A model generated the notes under the pieces. The model was not told where the DNA came from, did no database searches, and saw nothing but the letters and a program-made list of their open reading frames with translations. A stretch of DNA of 64,000 nucleotides from a virus: positions 1 through 64,000 of the IMG/VR virus record IMGVR_UViG_3300008266_000037; one strand, 5' to 3'. Below, one piece after another: positions 1-35,500 of the stretch; positions within the stretch are counted from its first letter, which is position 1, and each line of letters opens with the position of its first letter. A program made the translations under genes and the position numbers.

Positions 1-441
1 ATGAGTCACCTCAAAGAGGGTGACTTCATCGTCTGCCAGCTTCCTCTGGAAGCCGTGGATGAGGATGCCGAACCGACGCCGATTGAAAAGCTGGACCTTA
101 TAGGTCCAAAGGTCAAGCGGTCTGCTGGTTGGGCCAGAGCCAAAGGCGGCAAGGTCGCCGAGGTCATCAGCTTTGCTGATCGGACGCCTCTCTCTGAGAG
201 GCAGCGCATGGCGACCCATGACCAGCGTGTCATGAGACACTCTCTCGCTGAAAAGACCCCTTCGGGTCTTTGGGAGAAGCTGGAAGCCGAACGGCGCTCT
301 CTTATAGAGGCCAACAAAACGGCTCTCCGCTGGGAACGGCTCTCTTGCCTTCCCTCCCCTAAAGGGGAAATCACAGCTGCTGATTTCCGCTTCGGCTCCC
401 TTCGGGGTGATCGGGAAGCCTTGCCGGTGAAGGCCGCATAG
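1..441 (+). CDS. hypothetical protein (possibly 5'-truncated at window edge)
   Basis: 146-aa ORF beginning at window position 1. No recognisable motif. Region also contains several short GC hairpins, so coding status is uncertain. Confidence 0.3.
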   Translation: MSHLKEGDFIVCQLPLEAVDEDAEPTPIEKLDLIGPKVKRSAGWARAKGGKVAEVISFADRTPLSERQRMATHDQRVMRHSLAEKTPSGLWEKLEAERRSLIEANKTALRWERLSCLPSPKGEITAADFRFGSLRGDREALPVKAA

Positions 442-525
442 AAAGCCCTGTAGGGGCTGAATGCGAAGAACCCCCAAAGGGGGTCGGGATTGTCCTGACC
501 CCCATTTTTCCGAAGGAAACAGCCC

Positions 526-699
526 GTGGATAACACGTTCAAGGCAAAGCCTCTCCCGAATATCAGGCGTGAGATGGACCTATGGTCCAAGGGATGGGAC
601 GCCAGATTTGCCGGAAAGCCTATCCCCTTCGGGGATTCCTGCGAGGATGCCCGTAAGGGATGGGATGACGCTGACCAGTGGCTTAAAGAATATGGCTAA
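526..699 (+). CDS. small hypothetical protein (57 aa, GTG start)
   Basis: Short ORF (VDNTFKAKPLPNIRREMDLWSKGWDARFAGKPIPFGDSCEDARKGWDDADQWLKEYG) preceded by AAGGA. Followed directly by an intrinsic terminator. Composition looks more protein-like than the overlapping 81-aa ORF 461..706. Confidence 0.25.
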   Translation: MDNTFKAKPLPNIRREMDLWSKGWDARFAGKPIPFGDSCEDARKGWDDADQWLKEYG

Positions 700-727
700 C
701 CCCTAAAGGGGTCCACCCCGTCAACCT

Positions 728-767
728 AAAAAGCCCGTGCGGTCCTCTGGACTGTGCGGGTTTTTTT
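728..767 (+). terminator. rho-independent terminator
   Basis: A-tract, then a GC hairpin (gcccgtgcggtcc tct ggactgtgcggg), then a TTTTTTT run at 761-767. Confidence 0.7.
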
Positions 768-951
768 ATGCCTGTCACGCGGACGGGCTGTCACGCCCCT
801 GAAGGTGACGCAGGTGTGACCTCGATAGCGGTTCTTTGAACGGCGCGGAGAGGTTAGGTGCCGGTAGGGAGCCCCTGTCGGGCCGTTCGCCTTTGTGGGC
901 GACCGACCCTGTGTAACGGGTCTGTGGAACCGATATACCATATCGGAGGGC

Positions 952-1036
952 TTGACAGAAATCGGGGCGGAATCTTGCCGTGATGGGGCATGATAGGGGT
1001 AGAATCTTGCGCCGTTTCCCCTAATCGAGCAATAAT
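952..1036 (+). promoter_or_regulatory. two tandem sigma70-like promoter candidates, each carrying a GAATCTTGC box
   Basis: TTGCCG(975-980), 19 bp, TAGAAT(1000-1005). Then TTGCGC(1007-1012), 18 bp, AATAAT(1031-1036). The GAATCTTG motif recurs a third time at 1789-1798. Confidence 0.35.
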
Positions 1037-1151
1037 CTACCCCTGACCGGCGGAACAGACCGGAAACAGACCGAGAACAAGCGCAGCACAAAAGGGGTCC
1101 ATAGAGGGAACAACCCACCCTCCTGCTGGCTCTTGCTCACCCCTCCTTACG

Positions 1152-1209
1152 TGCGGACACTCAGGTGTCGGCGTTACCCGCGTTACCCGGACACTCAGGT
1201 GTCCACGCG
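1152..1209. promoter_or_regulatory. pair of 14-bp perfect palindromes GACACTCAGGTGTC (operator-like sites)
   Basis: Copies at 1156-1169 and 1190-1203, 34 bp centre to centre. They are separated by the direct repeat GCGTTACCC x2. Confidence 0.45.
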
Positions 1210-1239
1210 CGCCTGTCACGCAGAGAATCTTCTCTCTCT

Positions 1240-1500
1240 TTAACCTTAAAGCCTAGAGGGCGAAGGGTTTATAACTGTTCTCTTTTTCCTGCGGGCGCGG
1301 GCGCATCTTTCCTTTCTCCTTGAGGCGAAGGGTCTAAGACTTACTCTCTCCGCCTAGAAGGGAACGAAACCGGAACAAAACCGGAACAAAACAGGGCCTC
1401 TCTTTTCTTCCCCTCTTTAGAGGGGAAAATAAGTCAACCCATTTTGTTCTGGAAAATCTTCCCTTCCTTCTTAGGAAGGGAAAGAAAGTCAACCCCCTCG
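1240..1500. repeat. iteron-like direct repeats and short hairpins in non-coding DNA
   Basis: CCTNGAGGGCGAAGGGT repeated ~65 bp apart. AAGTCAACCC repeated ~58 bp apart. CCGGAACAAAA x2. Palindromes cctctttagagg and ccttccttcttaggaagg. No credible ORF on either strand. Confidence 0.4.
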
Positions 1501-1511
1501 GTTTTTCGGTT

Positions 1512-1537
1512 AAACCCCTTCGGGGTTTATTTTTTTG
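1512..1537 (+). terminator. rho-independent terminator
   Basis: aaacccc ttcg gggttt hairpin followed by a TATTTTTTT run. An AT-rich tract with GATTTT repeats lies downstream (1538-1560). Confidence 0.6.
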
Positions 1538-2071
1538 TTGATTTCAGATTTTCGATTTTGACGTGTTGAGGAGGTCGAAACGGCGGCGACGGCTTCAAAC
1601 AGAGCCTTTACCCCTTCGGGGGGCGACACGTTAGACCGGCGTTTTCCACTAGCGCCGTCATCTTGCCCTATCAGCACGGTTGACCGCCGTATTTGGGCCG
1701 TCCCCTTTGGGGATGAATGAGTGGGACCGTGGCTTGGGCTAACTCTCCCGCCTCATAAGGGCATCCTCGACGTGCTGACCTCTGGTCAGAATCTTGGGTG
1801 GCTCCCTTCTAGGGACCGTGAATCCACCTGTTGCGGTTGTGTATCTGACACATGCACAATCGCTGGGCGACAGCCACGAACGCACCTCGCATTACGCGAC
1901 CAGCACGACGGCTGGCGGGGGATTTGCAAAGCAAGGTCAAGGATACTGGGCTTCCCGGTTTCCGCTTCCCGTCATCGCATGAGCGAGCGGTCGAGGCGAG
2001 GCTGGGAAGCCGTGTCCTTTCGCTTGAACCGCTGGGATTGTCCCGGCGGCTCCACTGAAGGGATATTTGTT

Positions 2072-2284
2072 ATGGGTTCCGTCACCAGAGCGATCATCGT
2101 TACTGGCGCGAAGCGCGCTCCCGCTATGGCGAGGCGCGAGACCGTGGGCATGAGGGCGCGTCGCCTGTTTCGTGACCACGCCGCGACGCTGAACCGCGTC
2201 CATACTCCCCATTGGGAGGATGCTAGCCCTGCCGTCCGTAACTTCTGGATGGAAACCGCCACGCACATGACGGACATGGGCTGA
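2072..2284 (+). CDS. hypothetical small protein
   Basis: In-frame ATG within the longer ORF 1721..2284. The upstream part of that ORF is Arg/Trp/Cys-rich and looks like off-frame noise. Confidence 0.3.
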   Translation: MGSVTRAIIVTGAKRAPAMARRETVGMRARRLFRDHAATLNRVHTPHWEDASPAVRNFWMETATHMTDMG

Positions 2285-2285
2285 C

Positions 2286-2516
2286 ATGAGCGTCGCACCA
2301 TACGGATGGGCGACAGTGTGTGCAGGCGGCAAGGCCCGCAACGCTACGCACAAGGCGATCATGCGAGGGGCTGACCCGCGCTCTCGCCCGAATGACGCGC
2401 CGCCCAAGATGGGGTGGGAGTACAGGTTCATGGGCCTGCCCGGCACGCGTGGGCGGGCTCGCATGGAAAAATCCATGAAGCGGCTGCAAGACAAGGGCGG
2501 GCTGATTTCCAGCTAA
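2286..2516 (+). CDS. hypothetical small basic protein
   Basis: 76-aa ORF with an ATGA-type junction to the upstream ORF. Followed by a conserved CGCAATCGCACAAC box and a GC hairpin. Confidence 0.35.
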   Translation: MSVAPYGWATVCAGGKARNATHKAIMRGADPRSRPNDAPPKMGWEYRFMGLPGTRGRARMEKSMKRLQDKGGLISS

Positions 2517-2569
2517 CCCCTCGCAATCGCACAACAATCCCCCTCGGGGGTATATGTGGGTGGCTATCC

Positions 2570-2608
2570 GCGCCACAATCATGCGGGTATAATACAGGAG
2601 GTCATCAC
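2570..2608 (+). promoter_or_regulatory. early promoter candidate with strong RBS
   Basis: Perfect TATAAT at 2587-2592. AGGAGG lies 7 nt upstream of the ATG at 2609. Confidence 0.4.
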
Positions 2609-3001
2609 ATGACCAACACTTCGCGCTCCATCGGTCTCACCAACGCTCTGGTTTCCAGCCCGCGCTTCGAGATCGAGGCTGTCGGTCTCAAGACGGTCAG
2701 GTTCACCGTCGCGGACGGCACCGGCAACGAGATCACCCTGCTGATCCCGCGCTCCGAGGCCAAGAAGATCGGCTCCAACACGAACGGCGTCGTCGGCCAG
2801 CAGGAGTTCACCGAGCTGGAGAACCTCGAAGCCGCTGGCACGATCACCCTCGCTCAGGCCAACAGCCTGAAGCGTCGGCGTGACACCCGCGACCGCACCG
2901 CCACGCTCAACGCCGAGCGTTCGGCTGCTGCGGCCGCCCGTCGGGAGGCTGCCGACAAGGCCGCCAAGCCCGGCAAGGCCAGCCTGAAGGCCGTGGCCTA
3001 A
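2609..3001 (+). CDS. hypothetical early protein with basic Arg/Ala-rich C-terminal tail
   Basis: 130-aa ORF with strong RBS. Start chosen at the internal ATG of ORF 2414..3001. C-terminus reads KRRRDTRDRTATLNAERSAAAAARREAADKAAKPGK. Confidence 0.6.
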   Translation: MTNTSRSIGLTNALVSSPRFEIEAVGLKTVRFTVADGTGNEITLLIPRSEAKKIGSNTNGVVGQQEFTELENLEAAGTITLAQANSLKRRRDTRDRTATLNAERSAAAAARREAADKAAKPGKASLKAVA

Positions 3002-3051
3002 CCCTCACGGGCAGGCTGCAATCCGGCCAAGAGTAAGGCCTGAGTAGAAAC

Positions 3052-3082
3052 AGGAGGGGAGGGGCTGTAGTGGTCCCTCCTT
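3052..3082 (+). terminator. GC hairpin (AGGAGGG...CCCTCCT), possible attenuator/terminator
   Basis: 7-bp stem with a U-rich trailing sequence. Member of the recurrent G-rich hairpin family. Confidence 0.35.
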
Positions 3083-3137
3083 TCCTGTGTTCTCCTCACT
3101 CCCTTGCGAGGGGGTTAGGTGAGCACAGGAGGATTAC

Positions 3138-3398
3138 ATGACCACGCTAGAGCGTGTTGCCCGCGCAATCCACGAGGAGCAGCGCGAGGCTGGTGAAGAG
3201 ATGTTCGATAGGCTCTCGCCCGTAGAGCAAGCGCGGTATCTGCGTATAGCAGGCGCGGGATTGTGGGCGGCAAGAAGCCCCGGCGAGGCGATCATCAGCG
3301 ACAACATGGATTATTTCGCTGACCCGTGTTACGCAAAGGACGCGAACGCTGGCTTCAACGCAATCATCCAAAGCATCATCAATGAGGCTGACGCATGA
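3138..3398 (+). CDS. hypothetical protein
   Basis: 86-aa ORF with GGAGGA RBS. Confidence 0.55.
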   Translation: MTTLERVARAIHEEQREAGEEMFDRLSPVEQARYLRIAGAGLWAARSPGEAIISDNMDYFADPCYAKDANAGFNAIIQSIINEADA

Positions 3399-3562
3399 CC
3401 GAGCCCGCGATCAAGAAGCTGCAATCAGAGATCGCCCGGCTGCGTAAGTGCATCGCCGAGTACGAAAAGGCGGTGCCTATCGGCGGTATCGTGTGGGCGC
3501 TGAGCATCAACCCGGACGATGAGTACCCGATGATTCCTTACATCAAGCGTGAAGGGGACTGA
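3395..3562 (+). CDS. small hypothetical protein (55 aa)
   Basis: ATGA overlap with the upstream stop. Sequence is coiled-coil-like: MTEPAIKKLQSEIARLRKCIAEYEKAV... Below the ORF-track length cutoff. Confidence 0.4.
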   Translation: MTEPAIKKLQSEIARLRKCIAEYEKAVPIGGIVWALSINPDDEYPMIPYIKREGD

Positions 3563-3563
3563 C

Positions 3564-3884
3564 ATGAACGGCCAGTACATTCTCGTCAATGATGTGCCGA
3601 CGCCCGAACCAGACCTCAAGAAATGGGGGATGTGGTTTGAGACCGCTGATCGGCGCGTGGCTCTCACTCAGGTGGGCGACAGCACCGTCTCGACTGTGTT
3701 CTTGGCGCTCGACCACAACTTCGGCGGCGGCACACCCATTCTCTACGAGACCATGGTTTTCGGGGCAGACGATCGTGACGAACTTATGCGGCGCTATGCG
3801 ACTGTCGAGGAAGCGCAGGAAGGCCACGAGAGCGTTGTGAAGGCGCTCATCGCATCGCAAGGAGAGGTTGATGCTGCCCTTTAA
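3564..3884 (+). CDS. hypothetical protein
   Basis: 106 aa from the internal ATG of ORF 3549..3884, with an AAGGGGA RBS. Confidence 0.5.
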   Translation: MNGQYILVNDVPTPEPDLKKWGMWFETADRRVALTQVGDSTVSTVFLALDHNFGGGTPILYETMVFGADDRDELMRRYATVEEAQEGHESVVKALIASQGEVDAAL

Positions 3885-4188
3885 GTATCTGGTTGCTGGA
3901 GTCACGCCCGACCACCTCGGGTTCATCCCGCACTTCATGGACGCAAACGACCCGCGCCCTGCTGTGGTGCAGTTGAACGAGGGCTACAATCGCCTGTCCG
4001 GGTGCAGCTGGAGCCCGCAGCCTGAGTTCACAATCAGACCGGACGGCGGACTGAAATACCCCGGCGACCCGGTGATGAAGCCCATCGCTGAGGCTCACCT
4101 GCGTGATGAGGTCATCCGCATGTATGAATACGGGTACGTGAGTGTGCAACAGCCGGACGGTTCGTTTGAGGCTGCAAGGATGGACTGA
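3868..4188 (+). CDS. hypothetical protein
   Basis: 106-aa ORF overlapping the upstream gene end (operon-like). Confidence 0.5.
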   Translation: MMLPFKYLVAGVTPDHLGFIPHFMDANDPRPAVVQLNEGYNRLSGCSWSPQPEFTIRPDGGLKYPGDPVMKPIAEAHLRDEVIRMYEYGYVSVQQPDGSFEAARMD

Positions 4189-15010: not shown

Positions 15011-15253
15011 ATGGACGCGAGTACCGACAGGAGTGTCGTGCTGAGGCATCTATCCCTCCTAACCAAGGAGTATGTCGCCACACTACGCCACACCCAGAAC
15101 GGGCACACTTCTTACACAGCCCAGTCAGTTAGGGGTGGAAGGGTTGGAGACGCCATCTGTCGAGACCGTCTCCACAGGATAAAGAAGACCCTCAACCTAG
15201 ATCCCACGGGTCCGCCATTTTATTCCCCCCCTGATCAAGAACAGAGAAAATAA
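15011..15253 (+). CDS. hypothetical protein (overlaps primase 3' end)
   Basis: 80-aa ORF overlapping the convergent primase gene by ~60 nt. Confidence 0.3.
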   Translation: MDASTDRSVVLRHLSLLTKEYVATLRHTQNGHTSYTAQSVRGGRVGDAICRDRLHRIKKTLNLDPTGPPFYSPPDQEQRK

Positions 15254-17018
15254 CCTTCCGTCCCTGATGGGCGAATGGCTGGTCTGAGTACCGCCCCGTC
15301 TCTCTGTCATGGTGAAGGTCAGCCTTTCCCTCTGAGCCCGTCCATGCAAAGCGGGTCTTCCAGTTGTGGACTTCCGTTATGCGTCGGTCTTCCACTGGGC
15401 GGTGGATAGTCAGGCCAAAGTCCGGCCGGTTGTACCAGCTAGCTGAGCCGCTGATCTCGTACCCCTTCGGAACCACAGTGCTCCCATCGACGTTTGGTCT
15501 GAGCTTGTAGGGGTGGGCAATCAACCAGAGAGCCACGTCATGAGACACAGCGAACCCCTTGAACGCCTCCAGCATGTGGCCAACAGGGTCGGACGAACCA
15601 TCGCCGTCAGCCTTAGGTCTGGCAAGGTAGGATGCAGGGTCAACAACAGCGCCCCTCACGCCATACCTGAGGACAGAAGTCTTAAGCCTGTCGATCACGC
15701 TGTCCGGGCTGGTGCTCCCCCCGTCTCCGGTCAGGAACACGAAGTGATCATTGACCCACTCAAGCGCCGCATCCAGTTCCGTATCCGTGATGCGTGGGAG
15801 ATCTCCTCCACCGAAGAAGGGTTTCTCCACATAGAGCGCCGCAAGGCATGAGATCTGCACCTCTGGTGTGGTTTCCGTTGACCAGATAGCGAAACGCCAG
15901 TCGTGTTCACGGGCCATGTTGACCATCACGGCGTTGAGGAATGTCGTTTTGCCCGAGCCGGGCGCTCCGGTGATCACACACAGATGCCCCGGAACCACCG
16001 TGTAAAGGTCATCAAGGGCGGTGAACCCCGTTGTCATGCCTTTGCCAAGGCCGCCCGTGTAAAGGGCCCTGACGCCCTGTTCGTAATGGGATGCGCCATA
16101 CACACCAGCGATGGGCCACGGCTCAGGGTTAGCAAGGCAATGCTTCAGCTTCTCGACGCCCTCTTTCACGAGAACATCGTTGGCGTCCTTGCATCCCTCA
16201 GGCCAGACAATCCGCCACGCTCTAGCCTTACCAATGCGGCGAGCAAGCTCCTCCCCTAGGGCCTTACCAGGCTCATCGTTATCAACGGCGATGATGATGC
16301 GGCTGGCGTTGGCGAGGATGTCCTTACCAGACCAGACGTACTTGAAGCGCTTGTCCTCCTCCGGCGTGATCTTACCATCACTCACCTTAAGAGGCGCCCC
16401 GTTCGGAACGGACACCACGTTACCTTCACCAACCTCTACCAGAGAGAGGGCATCCATCTCTCCCTCAACGATGTAGAGATCCTTCTCTGGCTCAATCTTC
16501 TCCGACCTCCAGAAAGTTCCTGCACCACCAGCCTGCACAAACAGCTTGCTGTCCCCTGTGCGGATCTTGTGTGCGTAGGGTTTGCCCTTCTCGTCGATGT
16601 AGGGGAACCACACGCCCTCATGCCTGCCGTTGCCGGGAAAGCCATAGACAGAACTGAACACGCCCTCTGCCTCTGCGGTGCTGGCTGAGATCGCCCTTCT
16701 CGCTAGCCACCCAAGGGCTGCGTCGGACAGGGTCTTGGGACCAACCACATCGACAGCGTCCTCAACGGCTGACAGAAACACTTCAGTGGTTGGGAAGGGG
16801 GTAGGGGTCATTCTGTAGGGTTCCGTTTTGTTTGAGTGGACGCCAGCCCAGTTGCAGTTGTGGCAAAACCATCGCCACTCACCACGGTCAACCGTGACCG
16901 AGAGGCACCTCTCAGTCCTTTTCTTCCTGCCCTCTGAGCACTCAGGACAGGTGATGCGATGGGAGCCGGCGCCAAGGGACGTGATCTGGAAAGGCGCTTC
17001 CGCAGCTAGCTGTCTCAA
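15192..17018 (-). CDS. bifunctional DNA primase/helicase (zinc finger-TOPRIM-DnaB-like SF4 helicase)
   Basis: CPEC...CHNC zinc ribbon. TOPRIM IVEGEMDALSL. C-terminal RecA-fold with Walker A GAPGSGKTT. TTG start. Confidence 0.85.
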   Translation of the reverse strand: MRQLAAEAPFQITSLGAGSHRITCPECSEGRKKRTERCLSVTVDRGEWRWFCHNCNWAGVHSNKTEPYRMTPTPFPTTEVFLSAVEDAVDVVGPKTLSDAALGWLARRAISASTAEAEGVFSSVYGFPGNGRHEGVWFPYIDEKGKPYAHKIRTGDSKLFVQAGGAGTFWRSEKIEPEKDLYIVEGEMDALSLVEVGEGNVVSVPNGAPLKVSDGKITPEEDKRFKYVWSGKDILANASRIIIAVDNDEPGKALGEELARRIGKARAWRIVWPEGCKDANDVLVKEGVEKLKHCLANPEPWPIAGVYGASHYEQGVRALYTGGLGKGMTTGFTALDDLYTVVPGHLCVITGAPGSGKTTFLNAVMVNMAREHDWRFAIWSTETTPEVQISCLAALYVEKPFFGGGDLPRITDTELDAALEWVNDHFVFLTGDGGSTSPDSVIDRLKTSVLRYGVRGAVVDPASYLARPKADGDGSSDPVGHMLEAFKGFAVSHDVALWLIAHPYKLRPNVDGSTVVPKGYEISGSASWYNRPDFGLTIHRPVEDRRITEVHNWKTRFAWTGSEGKADLHHDRETGRYSDQPFAHQGRKVIFSVLDQGGNKMADPWDLG

Positions 17019-17589: not shown

Positions 17590-17625
17590 CCATTACCTTA
17601 AGGAACCTGTAACCTTAAGGAACCC
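17590..17625. repeat. direct repeat of palindromic CCTTAAGGAACC in non-coding region
   Basis: Sequence ccttaaggaacctgtaaccttaaggaaccc. Confidence 0.4.
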
Positions 17626-19536: not shown

Positions 19537-19974
19537 ATGCCGTGGAAAAACAAAGGACTGCCCCCCGGTGTGACCGCGAACCCGGTCGAAGCTGGCCTTC
19601 TGCGGAGGCTTCAGCAGGCCGCCCGCATGGCCCGGTACAACGCTGACGAAGCGGAAGACATCTCTCGGGCTGGAGTTGAGGCCGCTTCTCGCCACATCGA
19701 GACGACTTGCCCGGACATGGACTTCATTGTCATCGGGTCGGTTCCCTTCGGCGCCGACGCTCGGGCTGGCAAAGGCCCCGGCAACGCCATCTCCCAACGC
19801 ATCACGGGAGGCCCTCTGCTGGGCGCCAGCATGAGGGAGGACGTGATCCCCCAACAAGCCCGCTATTTCACGGAGTCTGGCAGCGCATGGACGACCTTCA
19901 CATCCCGGCTGTTGATCTGCTGGAAGATCCTCTTCGGAGCGAACCCGGAGGGGTACAGCCGAAAGGACCTGTGA
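19537..19974 (+). CDS. hypothetical protein
   Basis: 145 aa from the internal ATG with GGAGTAAAGCA RBS. Confidence 0.5.
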   Translation: MPWKNKGLPPGVTANPVEAGLLRRLQQAARMARYNADEAEDISRAGVEAASRHIETTCPDMDFIVIGSVPFGADARAGKGPGNAISQRITGGPLLGASMREDVIPQQARYFTESGSAWTTFTSRLLICWKILFGANPEGYSRKDL

Positions 19975-20576
19975 TCAAAACAGAATGGACGGAGGAGGAG
20001 GACCAGTACCTTATTGACATGATCAATATGGGCTGGACCTACCGACAGGTTGCTAGCGGCCTTAATGTTACAAGGCCGATAGGGGGTAAGCTAACCCGAA
20101 ACGCAATCGCCGGAAGAAAGTCCCGCCTCATACTCAAGGGCAGGGACATCAAAAAACCCAACCACAAGATACTCACCGCCCACGCAAACAGGCAGAAGCC
20201 TAAGCCCAAACCAAGAAAGGAGAGGGTCGTGACCAGTAAGATCAAGACTGTGGCCCCCGCTCCGGAACCAGTTCGGGTGAGGAGCGCAGCGACCGGGCAA
20301 CTTAAGCCCGTCCGTCCCGGCGTCCTGCCGATGGTGGAGGGTGCCAAGACCATAACTGAACTGGGCTATCGGCAATGCAGGGCAGCTGTGGGTGAAGCTC
20401 CTCGTATGCATGACGGGGTAAACAACCCGTTTATGTTCTGTGCTGCGCCCACCAGAGAGGGTGAGACCTACTGCGATGAGCACGCCGGTCTCATGTACGC
20501 TGCGCCAAAGCCAAAAGCTGAAGGAGACAGGGGCTTTATCCTGTCTCGCATTGGAACCAACAAGGGAGCCGCATGA
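19971..20576 (+). CDS. gcrA: GcrA-family cell-cycle regulator homolog
   Basis: N-terminus WTEEEDQYLIDMINMGWTYRQVA...LTRNAIAGRKSRL. C-terminus FMFCAAPTREGETYCDEHAGLMYAAPKPK. Both GcrA-signature regions present. GTG start after AAGGA. Confidence 0.7.
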   Translation: MIKTEWTEEEDQYLIDMINMGWTYRQVASGLNVTRPIGGKLTRNAIAGRKSRLILKGRDIKKPNHKILTAHANRQKPKPKPRKERVVTSKIKTVAPAPEPVRVRSAATGQLKPVRPGVLPMVEGAKTITELGYRQCRAAVGEAPRMHDGVNNPFMFCAAPTREGETYCDEHAGLMYAAPKPKAEGDRGFILSRIGTNKGAA

Positions 20577-26724: not shown

Positions 26725-27150
26725 ATGGCGGATTTGCCTAGCAAACACGCCGTTCACTTCGAGGCGGTGAAGATCGCCATGAACCAGACCAAGGATGGGT
26801 GGAAGCTCATCCTTGCGGTTCACCCTAACGATGCACCCGAGGAAGTTCTTCGGGCGCTCGTTGGGGCGAGGTACATGATCGCCGCCGTTGAGTTGGATGA
26901 GCATGAGCAGCCGAAGCCCCTGTTGAGCGATGCCGAGAAGGATGTTCGGTATGCTGGTCAGCTGTGCCGCACACCCGCCTTTGCCACTTGGATGTGGAGC
27001 AGGGGCTGGGCTCAGGAGATGACAGAGGCGTCTGCTGCCGATGGCCTTAGGCTAGTGCTGGGGATCGCTTCTCGATCAGAGATCGCCACCAATGAAGATG
27101 TAAGAAGGAGATTCCGTGAGCTTGCCCAATCCTACTTGGACGATAGCTGA
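26725..27150 (+). CDS. hypothetical protein overlapping integrase start
   Basis: 141 aa. 35-nt overlap with int, in the position an xis-like gene would occupy. No clear HTH. Confidence 0.45.
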   Translation: MADLPSKHAVHFEAVKIAMNQTKDGWKLILAVHPNDAPEEVLRALVGARYMIAAVELDEHEQPKPLLSDAEKDVRYAGQLCRTPAFATWMWSRGWAQEMTEASAADGLRLVLGIASRSEIATNEDVRRRFRELAQSYLDDS

Positions 27151-27952
27151 CCTGATCAGCTCATACCGGGGCAGTCGGCACAACCGGCTTCTTGCTCCGG
27201 CCACCCGAAGAAATACCGAGAAGACCTACCGATGGCTGGAACCGTTCAAGGACCGGCTTCTGGACACCATCACCAAGGCTGAGATAAGCACGGTTATCGA
27301 CGGCCTGCCTGCTGGCAACGCTCACATCTTTCTGTCCCGCGTTCGCGCTTTGTTCAGCTACGCTCGCTCGCTGGAAGAGATGACCAAGGACCCCTGTGTA
27401 GGCCTCACCACGCCTGCTACTGGTGAGTACCGACCTTGGACCCAGAAGGAAGTAGACGCCTTCCTGAAGGGCTCCAGCGACACTGTGGGCATGGCTGTGA
27501 AGCTGGCCTATTACACCGGCCAGCGGATGAGTGATGTCCTGACCATGAAGTGGAACGACATCCGGGACGGCGGTCTGGATGTTGTGCAGATGAAGACGAA
27601 GCAGCCGCTTCACATTCCCCTGCACCCTAAGCTGAAGGCCGCCCTGAAGAAGCACTCTCAGGGCAGCAAGTCCGATTACATCATTGCCATGAAAGACGGC
27701 AGGCCCTACACCCCGCATGAGTTTCGTGGTCGTTTTCGGGACACCCGCATCGCTCTTGGTTTGCCCGACGATATGGTGTTCCATGGGCTTCGCAAACTGA
27801 CGGCGGTCAACCTCGCCGAGAAGGGCGCCTCTACGCAGGAGATCATGGCTGTTGGTGGGTGGAAGTCCTCTCGCCAAGTGGACCACTACTGCAAGGGGTC
27901 TAATCAACGTAAGCTGGCCAAGCAGGCCATTGGAAGACTGGGAGCCCTGTGA
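27116..27952 (+). CDS. int: tyrosine integrase/recombinase
   Basis: R in YYTGQRMSDV. HxxR in FHGLRK. Catalytic Y in VDHYCK. GTG start after AAGGAG. Confidence 0.8.
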   Translation: MSLPNPTWTIADLISSYRGSRHNRLLAPATRRNTEKTYRWLEPFKDRLLDTITKAEISTVIDGLPAGNAHIFLSRVRALFSYARSLEEMTKDPCVGLTTPATGEYRPWTQKEVDAFLKGSSDTVGMAVKLAYYTGQRMSDVLTMKWNDIRDGGLDVVQMKTKQPLHIPLHPKLKAALKKHSQGSKSDYIIAMKDGRPYTPHEFRGRFRDTRIALGLPDDMVFHGLRKLTAVNLAEKGASTQEIMAVGGWKSSRQVDHYCKGSNQRKLAKQAIGRLGAL

Positions 27953-29200: not shown

Positions 29201-29277
29201 GCGCCCTTAGCTCAACTGGATAGAGCACCAGCCTTCTAAGCTGGGGGTTTCAGGTTCAAACCCTGAAGGGCGCGCCA
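29201..29277 (+). tRNA. tRNA-Arg (anticodon TCT), CCA encoded
   Basis: Manual cloverleaf. Acceptor GCGCCCT/AGGGCGC. D-arm GCTC-AACTGGATA-GAGC. Anticodon arm CCAGC-CTTCTAA-GCTGG. T-arm TCAGG-TTCAAAC-CCTGA. Discriminator G + CCA. Confidence 0.85.
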
Positions 29278-29279
29278 AT

Positions 29280-29355
29280 GTGCCGGGTGGTCCAACTGGT
29301 AGGGGCGCCCCGTACGCGGAGGAGGTGGGGGTTCAAGTCCCTCTCCGGCACACCA
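29280..29355 (+). other. tRNA-like element (canonical acceptor, D-loop, T-arm and CCA; anticodon arm does not fold canonically)
   Basis: Acceptor GTGCCGG pairs with CCGGCAC, then A + CCA. D-loop AACTGGTA. T-loop GGTTCAAGTCC. Possible pseudo-tRNA or attP core, 2 nt after the tRNA-Arg. Confidence 0.45.
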
Positions 29356-29368
29356 ATCCACGGAAGCT

Positions 29369-29584
29369 ATGCGAAAGAACTCTGCCCTCCCTAGGCTGAT
29401 TGCCCGCCTCCAAGAAGGCCCTCTAAAGGGAACCGACTGGAGACAATGCTCTCACAGTCAGCACACCCTGTATGAGAACATCCGCAGGCTTCGGTCTATG
29501 GGGTGGGACATACGGACGATAGGGGATTCCGGTAGGCCCGGAGAGTATATCCTTATAGCCCCGCCTGACGTTCCAGTTCCCTGA
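29369..29584 (+). CDS. hypothetical small protein (possible DNA-binding)
   Basis: 71-aa ORF ending convergently against the giant gene. Confidence 0.35.
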   Translation: MRKNSALPRLIARLQEGPLKGTDWRQCSHSQHTLYENIRRLRSMGWDIRTIGDSGRPGEYILIAPPDVPVP

Positions 29585-32500
29585 TTTGCTGGATGGTGAG
29601 GTTCATGAGAACCTGCTCTTCGTCACGCAGCTGCTTAACGATGGCCACCTTAGAGGCGTCGTCCATCTGAGGGTCCGTTTGGACCTCTCTAATCTCTCGC
29701 CTCGTCTTGATGCGTTCGCGCTCCATGTCAGCCGCGAAGTCGTAGATCATCATCCGCTCGGGACTGCGGGCCAGCAGACTGTTCACCGCCTCGTAGTTGC
29801 CTTCACTCTCGAACTGATCGACAGACCTACCGAACTGAAGGTAGGGCGTGATCAGCTTGTCGTAAGAGGTGCGGATAGATGCGCCACTGACATTGCCGCC
29901 AAACGACCTGTAGAGCGGCCAGTCTCTTGCGGCCAGCTCTCTTCCCTCAACGGCCTTGCTTTGCGGATCAATGGCAAAACCCATCAGGTTCCCGACCCTT
30001 CCAACAAACCGGCCCATGCCGCCAAGGTATGCCCCGGCCATGTGGTCAATGTCGTCGGGGTGAACCTCAATAGCGCCGGGGGTGTAGGCACTATCCCCGC
30101 CAGTGAGGCGAGAAGCCACGTCAGCAATGCCTTGGCTGGTCTGAGATGTTGACGGGAAGAACGACTGAGAGGCTGGCTGCTCAAGGCCCGGCATACCGGT
30201 CGGGTGAATGGGCTTGCCAGTGAAGTCAGTATTTACAGCTGTTTCGACCATAGGTCTGAACACAGACGGGAAGATGGCAGACACCCAACTTCCGTTGGTG
30301 CCGAAGGGGTTGAACGCCGACAGGACGGAGGAGCCCGTTTTCATAGCAGCATCCAACGGACCGCTCTTGCCCATCGCTACGCGCGCCATGTTCCGGCCAG
30401 CGGTATGGAAGACATTGTACCCAAGCGGCATGGGGATCTTCAGATAGTTCCCGCCTCCCAGCATGATGACCATGTTCTTCTCAAGGATGTAATCCTCGAT
30501 CTTATCGTACTCGCTGGTGCCGTATTCATCCTCTGGCGAGAGAGCCGACATAAGCACCTCTTGCAGAACGCCAGCGACCATGATTCCCATGATCACCTTT
30601 TGTACGCGAGGACTGGTCGCCGCCTGCATGAGAGTGGCGGTGCCTTGGGTGGCAGCGTTGAAGAACATATAGGCCGCGTTCATGTACGGCCCCCACTCCC
30701 CCTTGCGGTTGAAGTTGACAGTCATGTCCTTAGCCGCCTGAGCCGCGCGCTCCTCGCTCCAGCCCTGCTCCCTGAAAGCCTCAAACACGGCTAGACGGGT
30801 AGCCCCCTCAACGGAATCGTTGAGGTCTTCCAGATACTTAAAGCCCTTGCCTATTGCCTTCATGGATAGCCGGAGAGCCTTGGCCCCGGCGTTCTTGTCC
30901 TGCGGGTCAATGTCGTTCAGCTCTCTGGTGATCTGCTGCATCTGGTCCTCAATGGAGGTGAGACCATACACACCAGTCAGGCCACCAAGCTCAGACAGCC
31001 TGTCCATTTTTGCCTCAAGGACCGGGTCTTTCTTGCCCAGCCTCTCGCCTACCGCTTGACCGGCATAGACCATAGCCTTCTTGCTGATCTTCTGCCACGC
31101 ATCCGGGCTGTACTGACCAGACTGGATCATGGCCGCCTGCACGTCACGCAGGAAGTTGGCGACAAGGAACTCAGGGTTATATGATGTCTGCAACTGAGAC
31201 ATCAGGCGGGTCAGCCTCGCCATGCGGGACAAGATCAGGTCAGGGAGTGAACCCCCAAAGGACTGAATCTTCGACAGGCTGTCGCCCAGCCTCTTGTTCT
31301 TGACCTCAAAGATAACGTCCTTGCCGTTTTCTTTTGTGACGAAGTAGTTGGGGTCTCCCTTTACGTCCTTCGGACTCATCCGGGTCTTACCGTTCACGAC
31401 CACGCGCTGCATGGGGTGAGCGGGAAGTTCAACCAGATAGTCTTTGGTGAGTTCAGGGTTGTCACGGACGAACCGCGCGAGAGACTGACCGACCCTGACC
31501 TTCTCGCTTCTAACGATAGCCTCTTGGTTCTGCATGATCACGTTGGCCAGCATGTCGCCAGCGTAGGTTTGGCGACCCTTCATCGCCCGGTCTTCTTTTC
31601 CTCCGACCTTGTATGCCTTGCCGGTTCTGGCGTGCTCATCTCCAGTGAACCAGTCCTCTGCCGTGTTGCCGACAGCAAACCCTCTCAGTGGCACATAGTG
31701 TTTGAAGCGGGGCACAAGGGGAGACACGATGTCATCCCACTTAGGCGACAGGCCGGAGGTCTCTCTGGTCTTCCTTGTGTAATCCAGAATAGCATCGACC
31801 TTACTGGCAGCTGCCTCGACCTTGCTTTGCTTAGAGTAGCCGTCGAACCAGTCCATGATGGCTGCGGCTTCCTCGTTGGTCATGCCAGAGCCTGCGTCCA
31901 GCATCTCGTCGGTGATCTCTCCTGTGTCAGGGTCAATCTCCTTGGCCTTCCGCACTTCCTCAATGAACTTATTTCTCTCGGGCGCATGGCGGGCGTAGAG
32001 GTACAGGTTTAGAACGGCCTCCGACGGGTGGACGTGGGAGCTTTCCAGCTCTAGTCTGGCGGCGTTTGAAACACTGGACAGCTTTGCAAGGTCAGCCTCG
32101 GTCGCGCCAATCTGGTGGATAGCAAGGTAAGCCGGGCGCCACAGGTTCTCGTGTGCCTTGTCCATCTTATGCTGAGAGCGGCGGGTATAGAGGGTGTCGG
32201 CCAGAACGGGGTCGTTGGTGTCAGTCACCCGACCGCCAAACTTCGCCACCTCGGAAACCATCCTACGAACCGGGAACATCCGGTCTTGCGCCAGCGTCGT
32301 GGCCCTGTCGATAGCATCCCTAGCGTCAGCCTCAGCAACCTTGATCGGGCTGACCCTTGTTCCTTTGGCAAGATAGTCCTGCACAATGGTGTAGCGCGCT
32401 GCCATTTCCGCAGCACCAGACCCACCCATAGCCGCTACCTCAGGGCTTGGGCCTCCGATGGTCTTGCCTGTGGTGGACATTGCCGCATCGAGGGCGTCAA

Positions 32501-35500
32501 GGTCAGCCTCAGTCATCCCGCGAGGAAGGGTCGCTCCCTTGGAGTACAGGCGGAAGCCCTCTCCGTTAACGACCTCCCGCATCTTGGGAGTGATGTGGAA
32601 GGTAGGGGCGTCAAGGGTTCTGGCAGGCATTACCCCGCCTGTAATCGGGTGGTCGCCTTCTGGAATGTCAAACTGTCGATTGTTAATCTGCGCCCCGTAA
32701 GGCTTGATCTCCTTGCCGATTATGGATGTAATCACATCGTCGTAGAACTTGCCGACACCCTTTACAGACTGGTCATTACTGTACCGTTCCACTTGAATGT
32801 GTCCCGGCGTCCAGCTGATCTGGGTAATGCCGTTGTCAATAGCATCCAGAATGATGCGTCTGGTGGCCAGCTTAACCCATGCGTTATTCTTGAAGGGAGC
32901 TTCCGGAGGGGTGTCATACACTTCAAGAAGCTGAATCTTGTCGTATTCCTCTTGGGCTTTACGAAGAGAGAAGCGAATCGCCTCAGCAGCCTCGTGCGTC
33001 TGTCTATCTGGCCAGTACTTATAGTTTGAGGCGCGCGTGAATCTGGACAAGACATTGTGTTCGCCGGTCCGACTAAAGTCTGGGGGCTCGGCCATGTTAT
33101 TTTCGTAGAACTCAATGGCCTTTTCCTTTTCAGCCTGCAAGATCCTTTTAGCCTCAGCGACTTTTACCTCAACAATGTGCGAGCGGCGCAGGCGCTGGTG
33201 CCAGTCAGACTGGATTTCTTCAATGAACAGGGTTGGAACGCCGTTAACGTCATCCCTGATCTTGTAGCGAACGTGAGCCAGCACGTTGTACTCTCTGAAG
33301 TGCTCAGTGGCCCTGAAAGCCACTGGACTCAGCTTCGGGTTTATTGAACCCGGAATAGTGATCAGTAGTTCTGTCTCGGTGTGTCCTCCACGAAGTGTGT
33401 AGTTGCTGTGGTTGGCAACCAACCCGTCGTCTACCGTGTAATCGTTATACGTGTCCCACTCAGCAGCCGATGTCATCTTTTTGGCGACGTAACCTTCAGC
33501 CTGCTCTCGGTCCATTTGGCGACCGTCCATGTCCAGCTCATCCATAAGCTCTTGAACCATGGCGTCGAACATCTCCTTGTCGACAGGGTCTTCGATAGAC
33601 CCCGGACCCCTCTTGATGTCCTCCAAAACAATGTTGTTTTCCTCAAAGAACTCCTTCAACTCCTCAAGGGTCATGACCTTGTCAGGGTTTTCCTTAAGCA
33701 GGTCAGTAAACCCAACCCAATCCATCTCGTCCTTGGTCACGCCCGGCTGTGACTCAAGGGTCTTCAGCCATTGCTGAGCGGTGGCCTTCTTGGTGGTCTG
33801 GGCGTTGATGACCTGACCAAGGCGGGAATGAATACGGGCTCCAGCGTAAGAGAAGCGTCGGTCAGAAATGCGGGGGATGTTGTCCGGACGAATGCCAAAC
33901 GGGTCCACAAAAGACGCCATCTCCAGCATCTCATCGGCCATGTCATTGAGACCAGCCGCCCTGTTCTTCTCGGCCAGAGCCTGAAGGTTTTCGATGGTCT
34001 CCAACGGGGTAAAGCCGTTGCGGGAGTTGTAGTGAGACACGCCAGAAGCGGCAGCCTTCTTGGCAGCGATCTGAGCAAGAAGAGCGTTCTTCTCGTCCAA
34101 AGTCATCGAGATACCAAGGTTCTCGTTCACATCTACCGTGCGCCAAGGGGCATTACGTAGGCGCTCGGCTGGCGTCATGTTAATGCGCGACTCTGTGTTA
34201 CGCGCCTCCATCTCTCCATAGAGAGATTTGTAGACCGCAAAGTTTGTCGCCCGCTTGTATATGTCCGACATGTTGGAGGGGGGAACACCCATGACACTCA
34301 AGGCGCCCATAAGGTGCTCAACACTCTTGATCTGCGATGGGGTGTAGGTGGACCGTTCAGAGCCTACAGCCTTAAAGAAGCCGTCAATGTCCTGATTTTT
34401 TGATAGGGTTACCAGCTCCTTATTGACGGACTCAAACCGACGCCTGACCGCCTCACTCACCGTGGCAAGAGAAGGCATCCTGTTGGGGTTTCCGCCCCCG
34501 GCCATTCCCTCAAATGTCTGGATAGCGTGCTGGATTTCATGCAGCAGGACGGCTCTTATGGTTTCAGCCTCTTGAATGAGAGGCACGCCCCCCTTCCCGA
34601 CGGCAATCAAAATCCTATCAGGCGGCTCTCCGGTGCGAACTGGCGTCATGGCCGCGTTGCCCACAGTGAAGGAGCTGCCATCGTTTGTCTCGTCGGCAAA
34701 CTCAACCGTAACGTTTCTTAGGAAGGGGTAGGCCTCAAACAGCTCAGGATGATCCAGCACCTCTTCAATGGTGGAGTATATGGACGGACTCAGAACGCCT
34801 TGTTTCTGGCGGATGACAGCAAGGTCGCCGCGCAGATCAGAAGCGTTTGCAACAGGCTTAAGTCTGGAGTCATTGTCGCTGATCTCATAGCGAGGTTTCC
34901 CGTCAGGACCACGGAACCAACCGGTGTGCAGATAGATGGTGCCGCGAGAGTCGCCAGCCTTCTCCATCTTGAGGAACTTGGCGTAGTTGTCCCGTGGTGG
35001 GCGCTGGGATTTGGTGCTGGCAAAACTGAAGCGGCGGTCGGAAGGAACGGGAGGTTCCGCAAAGGGAAGCATGACCTCTTCACGGGCGGCAATCTTAAGG
35101 TTAGAGCCGGGAACGTTGTAAGGCTCCCTTCTTCTCACATTCCTGCTATCGAGAGTTCTTCTCCCTTCAGTGCTAAGCGCCTCCGCTTCGGCTTGCTGAG
35201 CATCAGCGGGCCAACCCTCCATCTGTCTGACGGCAAGCTGCGTCTGCCTGAGAATGGCCGAAACAACCATCTCTTCTTCCGGTCGGCTGTCGGCTCTTTT
35301 GGAAACGCCAATAACAATCCTGTCTGGGAGGGTTTGTCCGTCCCCGGAAACCATAAGAGAGCCGTCAGGCTTTTTAAGCGTGAACTCTACGGGAAGTGGA
35401 GCTAGTCCCGGATAGGCCTCAAACAACTCCTTGTGCTTGAGGACATCTTCAAGAACTTCATAAGTAGAGGTGGCGTTGGGACCGGCCTTGGCAATCCTTT

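Follow-up and report, generated by a model that had tools for sequence, protein, structure and literature searches.

The stretch of DNA considered here, termed the window, comprises positions 1 to 64,000 of the viral record IMGVR_UViG_3300008266_000037 in IMG/VR. Its 64 kb have a GC content of about 57% and are organized in two gene arms, with the plus-strand arm reaching from the start to about 29 kb, the minus-strand arm reaching from 29.5 kb to the end, and two tRNA-Arg genes at the junction. Contig L011, which belongs to a near-identical phage, bridges the end of the window to its start and leads to a circular map of about 69.7 kb; coordinates above 64,000 refer to this reconstructed genome. 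The window opens within a plus-strand cassette of three genes encoding proteins of 74, 191, and 57 amino acids (aa), at an internal ATG of the 191-aa gene. As the real start of this gene lies 135 nt upstream (contigs L007 and L011) and thus precedes the window, the open reading frame (ORF) listed at 1..441 is truncated. Positions 700-2071 downstream of the cassette form a non-coding gap of 1.37 kb, and the next credible ORF begins at 2072. A preliminary description of the DNA had confined the structured non-coding region to 728-1720, which falls short of this gap: what had been flagged is the central part of a longer non-coding regulatory region, 1.37 kb in length and conserved. The region contains terminator hairpins, putative operators, arrays of direct repeats, and a structured leader RNA, and it probably exerts control at two levels, by DNA sites and by the leader RNA, between the three-gene cassette and the main rightward early operon.

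Relatives of the region were found via homologues of the upstream 191-aa protein (60-91% identity). They comprise three diverged syntenic genomes (L023, L024, and L025) and partial contigs from further searches (L026-L030). Contigs with an identical neighbour protein, including L006-L008, are identical across the region and offer no variation. In L023-L025, a gap of 1.35-1.46 kb is located at the matching position and the flanking protein is 65-79% identical; size and location of the gap are conserved in L026 as well, and aligned parts of the region are also present in L027-L030. A comparison of the flanking small proteins with IMG/VR gave no relatives, and a comparison of window positions 1-4000 with deposited phages by DNA similarity gave zero matches. 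The mean column identity of the alignment is 74%, with identities to the window of 27-70% for 771-1224, 71-77% for 1225-1355, and 81-85% for 1635-1812, and of 63-82% for the flanking genes (one mis-set L024 comparison excluded). The alignment with the three diverged relatives contains many frame-breaking indels and no ORF is common to all four genomes, which bears out the earlier statement that there is no credible ORF. A protein or small-peptide gene that was missed might be suspected from ORFs of 52-130 aa in the window and from a 67-aa ORF that one gene caller placed here in L023. Such a gene is extremely unlikely, as no ORF is kept in all four genomes, the indels are not multiples of three, and the translations are alike only where the DNA is nearly identical.

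The best-supported RNA of the region is domain D2 (1635..2071, plus strand), which lies mostly outside the interval flagged before. Based on RNAalifold with six sequences, D2 is predicted to fold into 20 helices as a structured leader RNA about 440 nt long. Compensatory double changes are found in 24 of its 132 predicted pairs, and 96% of cells are paired. The shuffles contained 10.8 ± 2.3 covarying pairs and none of 500 reached 24, while controls with slid pairing partners contained 2-8 compensatory pairs. Since the minus strand folds 26 kcal/mol worse and many G-U pairs are invariant, D2 is regarded as an RNA of the plus strand. The domain is held together by the long-range helices H2 (1658-66 with 1931-39) and H10 (1818-30 with 1916-27). 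Further helices are H1 (1637-43 with 1651-57) and H3 (1676-80 with 1686-90), the latter with four adjacent compensatory pairs and a conserved UUGACC loop. Kissing of this loop with the GUCAACC tails described below was considered and dropped because no covariation was found. D2 ends with the hairpin H19/H20 (2012..2066, plus strand; -31.4 kcal/mol, z = -4.0), the 3' strand of which holds GAAGGGA (2056-2062), the ribosome-binding site for the first early ORF (ATG at 2072). In this last element, GUGUCCUUUCG is paired with the ribosome-binding site. H20 has four compensatory pairs, and variation in H19 is confined to G-U/A-U changes.

Identities in D2 are 72-85% for domains 1 and 2 and 55-82% for domain 3, compared to 63-82% for the neighbour genes; domains 1 and 2 are conserved as much as, or above, the flanking genes and domain 3 less so in L025. 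A search of positions 1-3000 on both strands against Rfam (cmscan, E <= 10) revealed no family match, the only matches being at chance level and far below gathering scores. The covariance model R1 of D2 domain 1 matched this clade only and did not match Pag-Yong1, HTVC027P, RW, or the portal relatives in IMG/VR. An invariant 25-mer of the RNA motif is absent from IMG/VR, and its 23-mer core is absent from the JGI metagenome_contigs and from GTDB genomes. With its covarying fold, its contiguity with the ORF, and the predicted site inside a helix, D2 has the features of a Shine-Dalgarno-sequestering leader. D2 is the strongly supported RNA here, and it is a leader in cis to the early operon, not a free non-coding RNA (ncRNA).

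At the upstream end of the region, a small hairpin, CCCCTAAAGGGG, is followed by GTCAACC (698..726, plus strand). This first copy of the module 'hairpin + GTCAACC' is located after the stop of the 57-aa gene and before the terminator T1; its GTCAACC is kept in L023 and L024, reads GTCAAT in L026, and is absent in L025. T1 (728..767, plus strand; -26.4 kcal/mol, z = -9.0, followed by U7) closes the three-gene cassette; a terminator had been proposed at this position. T1 is strong. It is specific to the plus strand because of its G-U pairs, and it fully co-varies, with a different stem at the same place and a kept T-run in L024 and L025. Both T1 and a second hairpin, T2 (see below), consist of a GC-rich hairpin and a subsequent U-run on the transcribed strand, as is typical of intrinsic terminators. 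Between 765 and 1050, only local hairpins are predicted. This part holds a near-invariant block in the alignment (786..830), consisting of CGTCACGCC-N6-AAGGTGACGCAGGTGTGACC, of which CTGTCACGC occurs also at 772 and 1213. A conserved hairpin or palindrome with the core (T/G)CGCC-TTTGTG-GGCG(A/C) is located at 874..910; it has one compensatory closing pair, which is GC in three sequences and UA in two.

The two GACACTCAGGTGTC palindromes named in the preliminary description are present as exact copies at 1156 and 1190, and no other copy with up to two mismatches exists in the window. They are part of two 16-bp palindromic operators (1155-1170 and 1189-1204; site sequence GGACACTCAGGTGTCC), which are 34 bp apart from centre to centre with two copies of GCGTTACCC between them. 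From 28 sites in six genomes, the motif GGAC(A/G)C-N4-GTGTCC was derived, with positions 2-4 and 13-15 invariant, positions 11-12 kept in 27 of the 28 sites, and the central 4 nt free. Because the arms are invariant and the centre is variable, a dimeric DNA-binding protein is the suggested ligand. A reading as RNA hairpins was rejected, as an invariant stem with a variable loop is the opposite of an RNA pattern. The sites are confined to two modules, namely module B with two sites in the region described here and module A, whose three sites are spaced by 32-33 bp and occupy the divergent region that separates the gene for the small terminase subunit (TerS) from the 74-aa gene. The modules are about 1.74 kb apart on either side of the plus-strand cassette of the 74-, 191-, and 57-aa genes. 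Spacing within clusters is 31-44 bp, and genomes represented by both modules have 4-7 operators. This number varies because extra copies occur directly after T1 in some relatives, two in L023 (10897-10950) and one in L024 (11031-11046). A search of IMG/VR with the exact palindrome gave five single matches. Repeated and clustered palindromes with conserved half-sites and a free spacer are the hallmark of repressor operators, and the palindromes behave as putative protein operators.

The earlier suggestion of an immunity or operator region is plausible with respect to the operator clusters around the T1-closed cassette and to the presence of an integrase-family gene; what is missing is a cognate repressor domain adjacent to them. 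The gene in question encodes an integrase-family tyrosine recombinase of 278 aa (27116-27952, plus strand). It lies about 1.2 kb upstream of the adjacent tRNA-Arg pair (anticodons TCT and ACG; 29201-29355, plus strand) where the two arms converge, a context that suggests a temperate lifestyle with attP nearby. A weak helix-turn-helix protein (114 aa) and a DnaA C-terminal domain protein (157 aa) are encoded about 1.5-2 kb away in the leftward operon.

The arrangement can be compared to the immunity region of phage lambda, in which OL and OR surround the repressor gene and the early leader contains nutL, an RNase III hairpin, and the ribosome-binding site of N. Similar features are the operator clusters (three and two sites here) about 1.7 kb apart around a short cassette and facing outward transcription, terminators in the early leader, a stable hairpin at the first early ribosome-binding site, and the integrase-family gene. 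In contrast to lambda, no CI-like or helix-turn-helix protein is recognisable in the cassette, the operators are 16 bp long and about 32 bp apart, and the leftward unit begins with TerS and structural genes instead of early genes. The leader also differs, as it is about 1 kb long with a conserved fold of 440 nt and has no boxA/boxB.

Small terminases are known to bind phased repeats. In another reading, the region would be where the genome ends or is packaged (pac, cos, or terminal repeat), with the repeats as small terminase sites, given that GAAC/GTTC repeats are located at the 5' end of the TerS gene and that Pag-Yong1 has a GGAAC repeat there, too. Contigs of four independent assemblies cross the region uninterrupted, the terminal redundancy in the record of phage RW covers TerS and part of the large terminase gene (TerL) but not the early leader, and the operators as well as the RNA covariation would be left unexplained, all of which makes a packaging site very unlikely. 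The RW record (MK929790.1; L032/L033) is linear and repeats several kb (at least about 2.7 kb) at both ends; besides TerS, the repeated stretch includes seven to eight small genes and a portion of TerL, which is consistent with headful packaging starting near the terminase genes.

The iteron-like repeats described before are real: Tandem Repeats Finder detected period-11 repeats at 1053-1079 and 1361-1392 and no other array of this period in the window. Relatives differ in the copy number of the repeats. Array I (1049..1115, plus strand) consists of about six units with an 11-bp period (GAAC / AAAC / GAAC / GCAC / TCCA / GAAC). It is degenerate here, while perfect chains are present in L026 (five units) and L025 (seven units). 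Array II (1361-1392, plus strand) consists of three exact GAAC-N7 units inside the structured domain D1. Among 68 collected units, the consensus is GAAC-A-R-A, and 31 of 54 consecutive spacings are exactly 11 bp. Exact GAAC-N7-GAAC occurs ten times in the genome compared to 2.1 expected copies, which is about five-fold, and four of the ten are located in the two modules. Modules A and B are also the top two genome loci for boxes with up to one mismatch. In every relative, GAAC is on the plus strand in module B and GTTC is on the plus strand in module A. Exact LexA-type boxes are located at 1362 and 1373 (plus) and at 68995 and 69063 of the reconstructed genome (minus orientation).

GTTC-N7-GTTC is the LexA motif of Alphaproteobacteria (PMC4951493; PMC9578287; bioRxiv 10.1101/2025.01.26.634973), and GAAC-N7-GAAC is the same box on the other strand. 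The phage encodes a GcrA-family protein (19707-20576, plus strand; Pfam E = 6e-16), which points to an alphaproteobacterial host. GcrA is a family of alphaproteobacterial cell-cycle regulators. The portal protein shares about 35-44% identity with those of Pag-Yong1, HTVC023P-type pelagiphages, the roseophages CRP-901/902, and Caulobacter phage RW; these portal relatives infect Caulobacter, Roseobacter, and Pelagibacter. Taken with the recombinase, the phage is probably temperate and its host an alphaproteobacterium. From the match to the motif and this likely host class, the simplest reading of the GAAC-N7 arrays is that of tandem host LexA sites, a phage-encoded protein being the alternative binder. 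CtrA boxes (TTAA-N7-TTAA) number zero in the genome.

Downstream of array II, the GATTTT tract (1525..1564) is 72-85% identical in relatives. With 25% GC, it exceeds every other 40-mer of the reconstructed 69.7-kb genome in AT content, in agreement with the AT-rich tract reported before, and it is a candidate for a DNA-unwinding element or for a U-rich single-stranded RNA linker. Phased direct repeats beside an AT-rich element are characteristic of iteron origins, and a serious rival explanation is that the region is, or also holds, a replication origin, with the GAAC units as iterons for a phage initiator and the AT tract as unwinding element. Transcription from the upstream promoter zone could then aid opening, as at the primary origin of T7, where an AT-rich stretch bearing primase sites follows the promoters. 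No further period-11 arrays exist in the window, the tract lies 130 bp downstream of array II, and array copy number differs between relatives, as is usual for iterons. The tract is also kept in the two relatives with a weak T2 hairpin. Furthermore, the phage has a T7 gp4-like helicase-primase without a DNA or RNA polymerase domain among the Pfam-scanned ORFs, and near the helicase gene there is no better candidate combining iterons and an AT-rich element.

However, no Rep-like initiator gene adjoins the region, strict DnaA boxes (TTWTNCACA) are absent genome-wide, the GC skew has no inflection here, and the plus-strand covariation of 1635-2071 is left unexplained by an origin. The repeat is also found beside TerS and is always oriented with local transcription; because of this duplication and orientation, control of transcription fits better than a single origin. 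An origin is therefore a possibility of rather low probability, and it could coexist with a control function. Iteron origins (lambda ori, plasmid oriV) and the T7 primary origin share with the region the phased repeats by the AT-richest spot downstream of a promoter zone, and T7 the gp4-like helicase-primase. They differ from it as no adjacent initiator, no DnaA boxes, and no phage RNA polymerase were found here and as the repeat is duplicated at TerS. Binding as at a P4 alpha-type origin was considered because of TGTTCACC-like units in the array and was discarded, since the helicase-primase resembles T7 gp4 and gave no P4-like match.

Domain D1 (1245..1510, plus strand, with the strand being ambiguous) precedes D2 and consists of a near-invariant block, array II, and hairpins 1 and 2. 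The block of 100 nt (1250-1350) contains two GAGG(G)CGAAGGGT boxes (GAGG(G)CGAAGGGU) and CU-rich tracts. Hairpins 1 (1408-1427) and 2 (1457-1485), both on the plus strand, are followed by AAGTCAACC, the tail after each hairpin being AAGUCAACC. A closing helix of about 1246-1260 with 1493-1507 is possible. In D1, 91% of cells are paired and 10 pairs are compensatory, compared to 4.7 ± 1.5 in shuffles and 1-4 in slid controls, a significant covariation. D1 is followed by T2 (1511..1537, plus strand; -10.1 kcal/mol), a moderate terminator-like hairpin with a U-run and a co-varying stem. The terminator proposed at 1512-1537 is thus present in this phage as a hairpin with a U-run but is weak in two relatives.

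The preliminary description had also proposed an ncRNA of about 500 nt extending over 1040-1537. The conserved hairpins in 1245-1537 agree with this, whereas 1040-1225 is made up of DNA sites and both strands fold alike. A free RNA of about 300-500 nt ending at T2 could act in trans as a sponge, an antisense RNA, or an immunity RNA like P4 CI, with the rest of the region as promoter DNA. It would account for the compensatory pairs in the hairpins ahead of a hairpin with U-run, for the near invariance of 1250-1350, which is above neighbour-gene conservation, and for the fold of 1040-1540 (z = -5.3). The same fold check gives z = -5.0 for the minus strand, and the accompanying Rfam check is covered by the negative cmscan result for 1-3000. 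T2 lacks credibility as a terminator in L023 and L025, L025 lacks 74 nt including hairpin 1, no promoter was identified for such an RNA, and its 5' third (1040-1225) has DNA-type sites with invariant half-sites and a free spacer. A trans-acting RNA ending at T2 is thus quite unlikely, and the cis leader D2 is preferred as the principal RNA of the region.

The promoter boxes of the preliminary description need revision. GAATCTTG occurs four times in the window compared to 2.1 expected copies, a count that by itself falls short of significance. Boxes 1 and 2, which are only partly conserved, are at most putative promoter elements. Box 3 is not a promoter: it is located at 1789 inside the conserved D2 helices H8/H9, its 'GTGAAT -10' is one strand of helix H10, and the distance between them differs by 11 nt between the window, L029, and L030 on the one hand and L023, L024, L025, and L028 on the other. 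A candidate rightward early promoter zone is located at 950..1045 on the plus strand. It has a TTGACA at 951-956 that is invariant in relatives, GAATC(T/A)TG boxes at 970 and 1002 that recur at 32-bp steps, and NNGAAT / AATAAT elements 18-19 bp after TTGC(C/G). Visual inspection of the sequence that follows T2 and TTGACA for -35/-10 pairs yielded no convincing conserved -10, and the GAATC (GANTC) boxes are neither significantly enriched in the control region nor strictly conserved.

From conservation, covariation, motif distribution, and hairpin energies, we infer promoter positions, binders of the operators and arrays, and an opener of the last hairpin that together would constitute the two-level control. 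The DNA level would span about 770-1225 and array II, and the RNA level about 1245-2071 on the plus strand. T1 would halt the transcripts of the cassette, and new rightward transcripts would start from the zone after T1 with its invariant TTGACA at 951 and its GAATC boxes. The GAAC array and the subsequent two operators would block or modulate transcription into the early operon, and the twin module on the TerS side would do likewise for the leftward unit. Since the module of operators and GAAC array recurs 1.7 kb upstream, one phage regulator could bind both clusters and would then gate leftward and rightward transcription together, like OL/OR around cI in lambda. Host LexA on the GAAC arrays would couple this switch to the SOS response. 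Any transcript getting past the operators would carry a leader of about 1 kb, in which D1 and T2 may act as an attenuation point in this phage and in L024, and in which the final hairpin of D2 would bury the Shine-Dalgarno sequence of the first early ORF. Because this hairpin masks the Shine-Dalgarno sequence, translation of ORF 2072 would depend on a factor, a ligand, or RNase III opening or cleaving H19. A bolder version is rather unlikely: D2 might be a new large class of phage regulatory RNA, which would respond to a host signal or factor and license translation of the entire early operon, and/or the tandem LexA-type boxes might read the host SOS repressor directly or titrate it at high genome copy number. 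If the tandem boxes are indeed LexA sites, chains of 3-7 boxes at both outward promoters would replace a self-cleaving repressor of the CI type.

Several observations speak against two-level control as outlined here. The covariation rests on 5-6 distinct sequences, some of them mutually close, and the minus strand of D1 folds as well as the plus strand. T2 is weak in L023 (-4.2 kcal/mol) and in L025 and would be too weak to terminate there. A sigma-70 consensus promoter is absent from positions 1-3000, and D2 could have its own, unrecognised promoter. Pfam and PHROGs revealed no DNA-binding domain in the 74-, 191-, and 57-aa cassette proteins, and the AlphaFold model of the 191-aa protein is unusable (pLDDT 51); because of this lack of a DNA-binding domain in the cassette, a lambda-like scheme with the repressor between operator clusters lacks its key protein. 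The GAAC-N7-GAAC box specifies eight bases only, and SOS boxes do not usually come in arrays of 3-7 units: in Caulobacter, about 97% of the SOS promoters are single-box (bioRxiv 10.1101/2025.01.26.634973). The portal protein search of GTDB representative genomes found no prophage relative, which bears on the deduced host.

Known systems offer parallels for the individual parts. LexA is used by the tectivirus GIL01 together with gp7 and, at PrstA of CTXphi, together with RstR. As in these phages, candidate SOS boxes are located beside phage operators, here as a motif match alone. Unlike their single boxes, the alphaproteobacterial direct repeat occurs here in chains of 3-7 units, in a phage with a deduced host. 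Large intergenic regions dense in CtrA sites have been described for alphaproteobacterial phages in the context of 'lytic deferment' (PMC9437464). The region resembles them in its size and in its skewed sites of a host transcription factor type, and differs from them as it has the LexA-type box instead of CtrA boxes and a structured RNA in addition. Leaders that mask the Shine-Dalgarno sequence, such as riboswitches, ribosomal-protein leaders, and translational operators of phages, have a covarying fold upstream of an ORF with a masking last helix, as D2 has. D2 is phage-borne and large like GOLLD and ROOL; its 440 nt place it between the usual riboswitches and the longer GOLLD or ROOL in size, and it was found in one small clade only.

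All kinds of components in the region, i.e. operators, boxes for host factors, terminators, and a Shine-Dalgarno-masking leader, are therefore known. Undescribed members are the operator motif, the tandem LexA-type chains in an alphaproteobacterial phage, and the covarying 440-nt leader without an Rfam family. The preliminary description is partly confirmed in that its observation is real and richer than first described, with corrections for the promoter reading and the extent of the ncRNA. Relatives of the phage group of HTVC023P, CRP-901, and Caulobacter RW occur in waters in high abundance. Two genomic studies of this group (PMC9599517, PMC10149686) do not mention promoters, intergenic regions, or replication origins, and the region supplies testable parts in the form of the operator motif, the candidate link to LexA, and the leader RNA masking the first early ribosome-binding site. 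If LexA binding holds true, an alphaproteobacterial phage switch would be wired to the SOS repressor via direct-repeat boxes, in parallel to the 'lytic deferment' by CtrA. If the findings fail, an ordinary, though unusually elaborate, early control region would remain.

Further features of the phage genome concern replication, packaging, and the large ORFs. The primase-helicase, which is T7 gp4-like, is encoded at 15192-17018 on the minus strand; it belongs to several long minus-strand ORFs at 13.5-19.2 kb inside the otherwise plus-strand early arm. A 13-bp sequence, ACCTTAAGGAACC, with the palindrome CCTTAAGG inside, is directly repeated at 17595-17624 in two exact copies. They lie past two small plus-strand ORFs in a short intergenic gap, about 0.6 kb away from where the primase-helicase gene starts (17018), and may be another operator pair. 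ERF, HNH, and PD-(D/E)XK proteins are also encoded by the phage. The large terminase gene (L011 3510-5822; genome about 64.0-66.3 kb) carries an intein (Intein_splicing / PT-HINT matches), and the ORF has 770 aa here compared to 480-521 aa in L023-L025. Between TerS and TerL, all members of the clade encode a protein of 157-163 aa of which nearly the whole is a DnaA C-terminal DNA-binding domain (L011 2430-2903; L023 7409-7888; L024 7041-7514; L025 4062-4553). A BCS1-like AAA ATPase gene adjoins it in L023-L025 and is absent from this phage. The 490-bp gap after TerS contains 3-4 GGGACCCTTTG repeats (L011; reconstructed about 68,140-68,310), and nine TGTATGACA repeats are found at the equivalent place in Pag-Yong1 (L022 11,220-11,580); these repeats may be late-promoter or pac elements.

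The block of tail genes ends with a large polyvalent protein of 3268 aa (29553-39359, minus strand) that has LPD38, two LPD23, and SprT-like metalloprotease motifs. It is easily mistaken at first for a virion RNA polymerase of the N4 type. An N4-like phage, with a giant ORF and hairpin promoters, was rejected, as no RNA polymerase domain was detected in this LPD protein. The mini-hairpins of the genome do not correspond to N4-type hairpin promoters either: they are enriched at the region, but several are located inside ORFs or form terminators. Ten of the 18 distinct genome sites with CCCC-N3-5-GGGG mini-hairpins are located within 3.3 kb, from 68,973 of the reconstructed genome to 2,540 of the window. 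Some mini-hairpins are inside ORFs, and exact copies of CCCCTTCGGGG are located at 624, 1515, and 1611.

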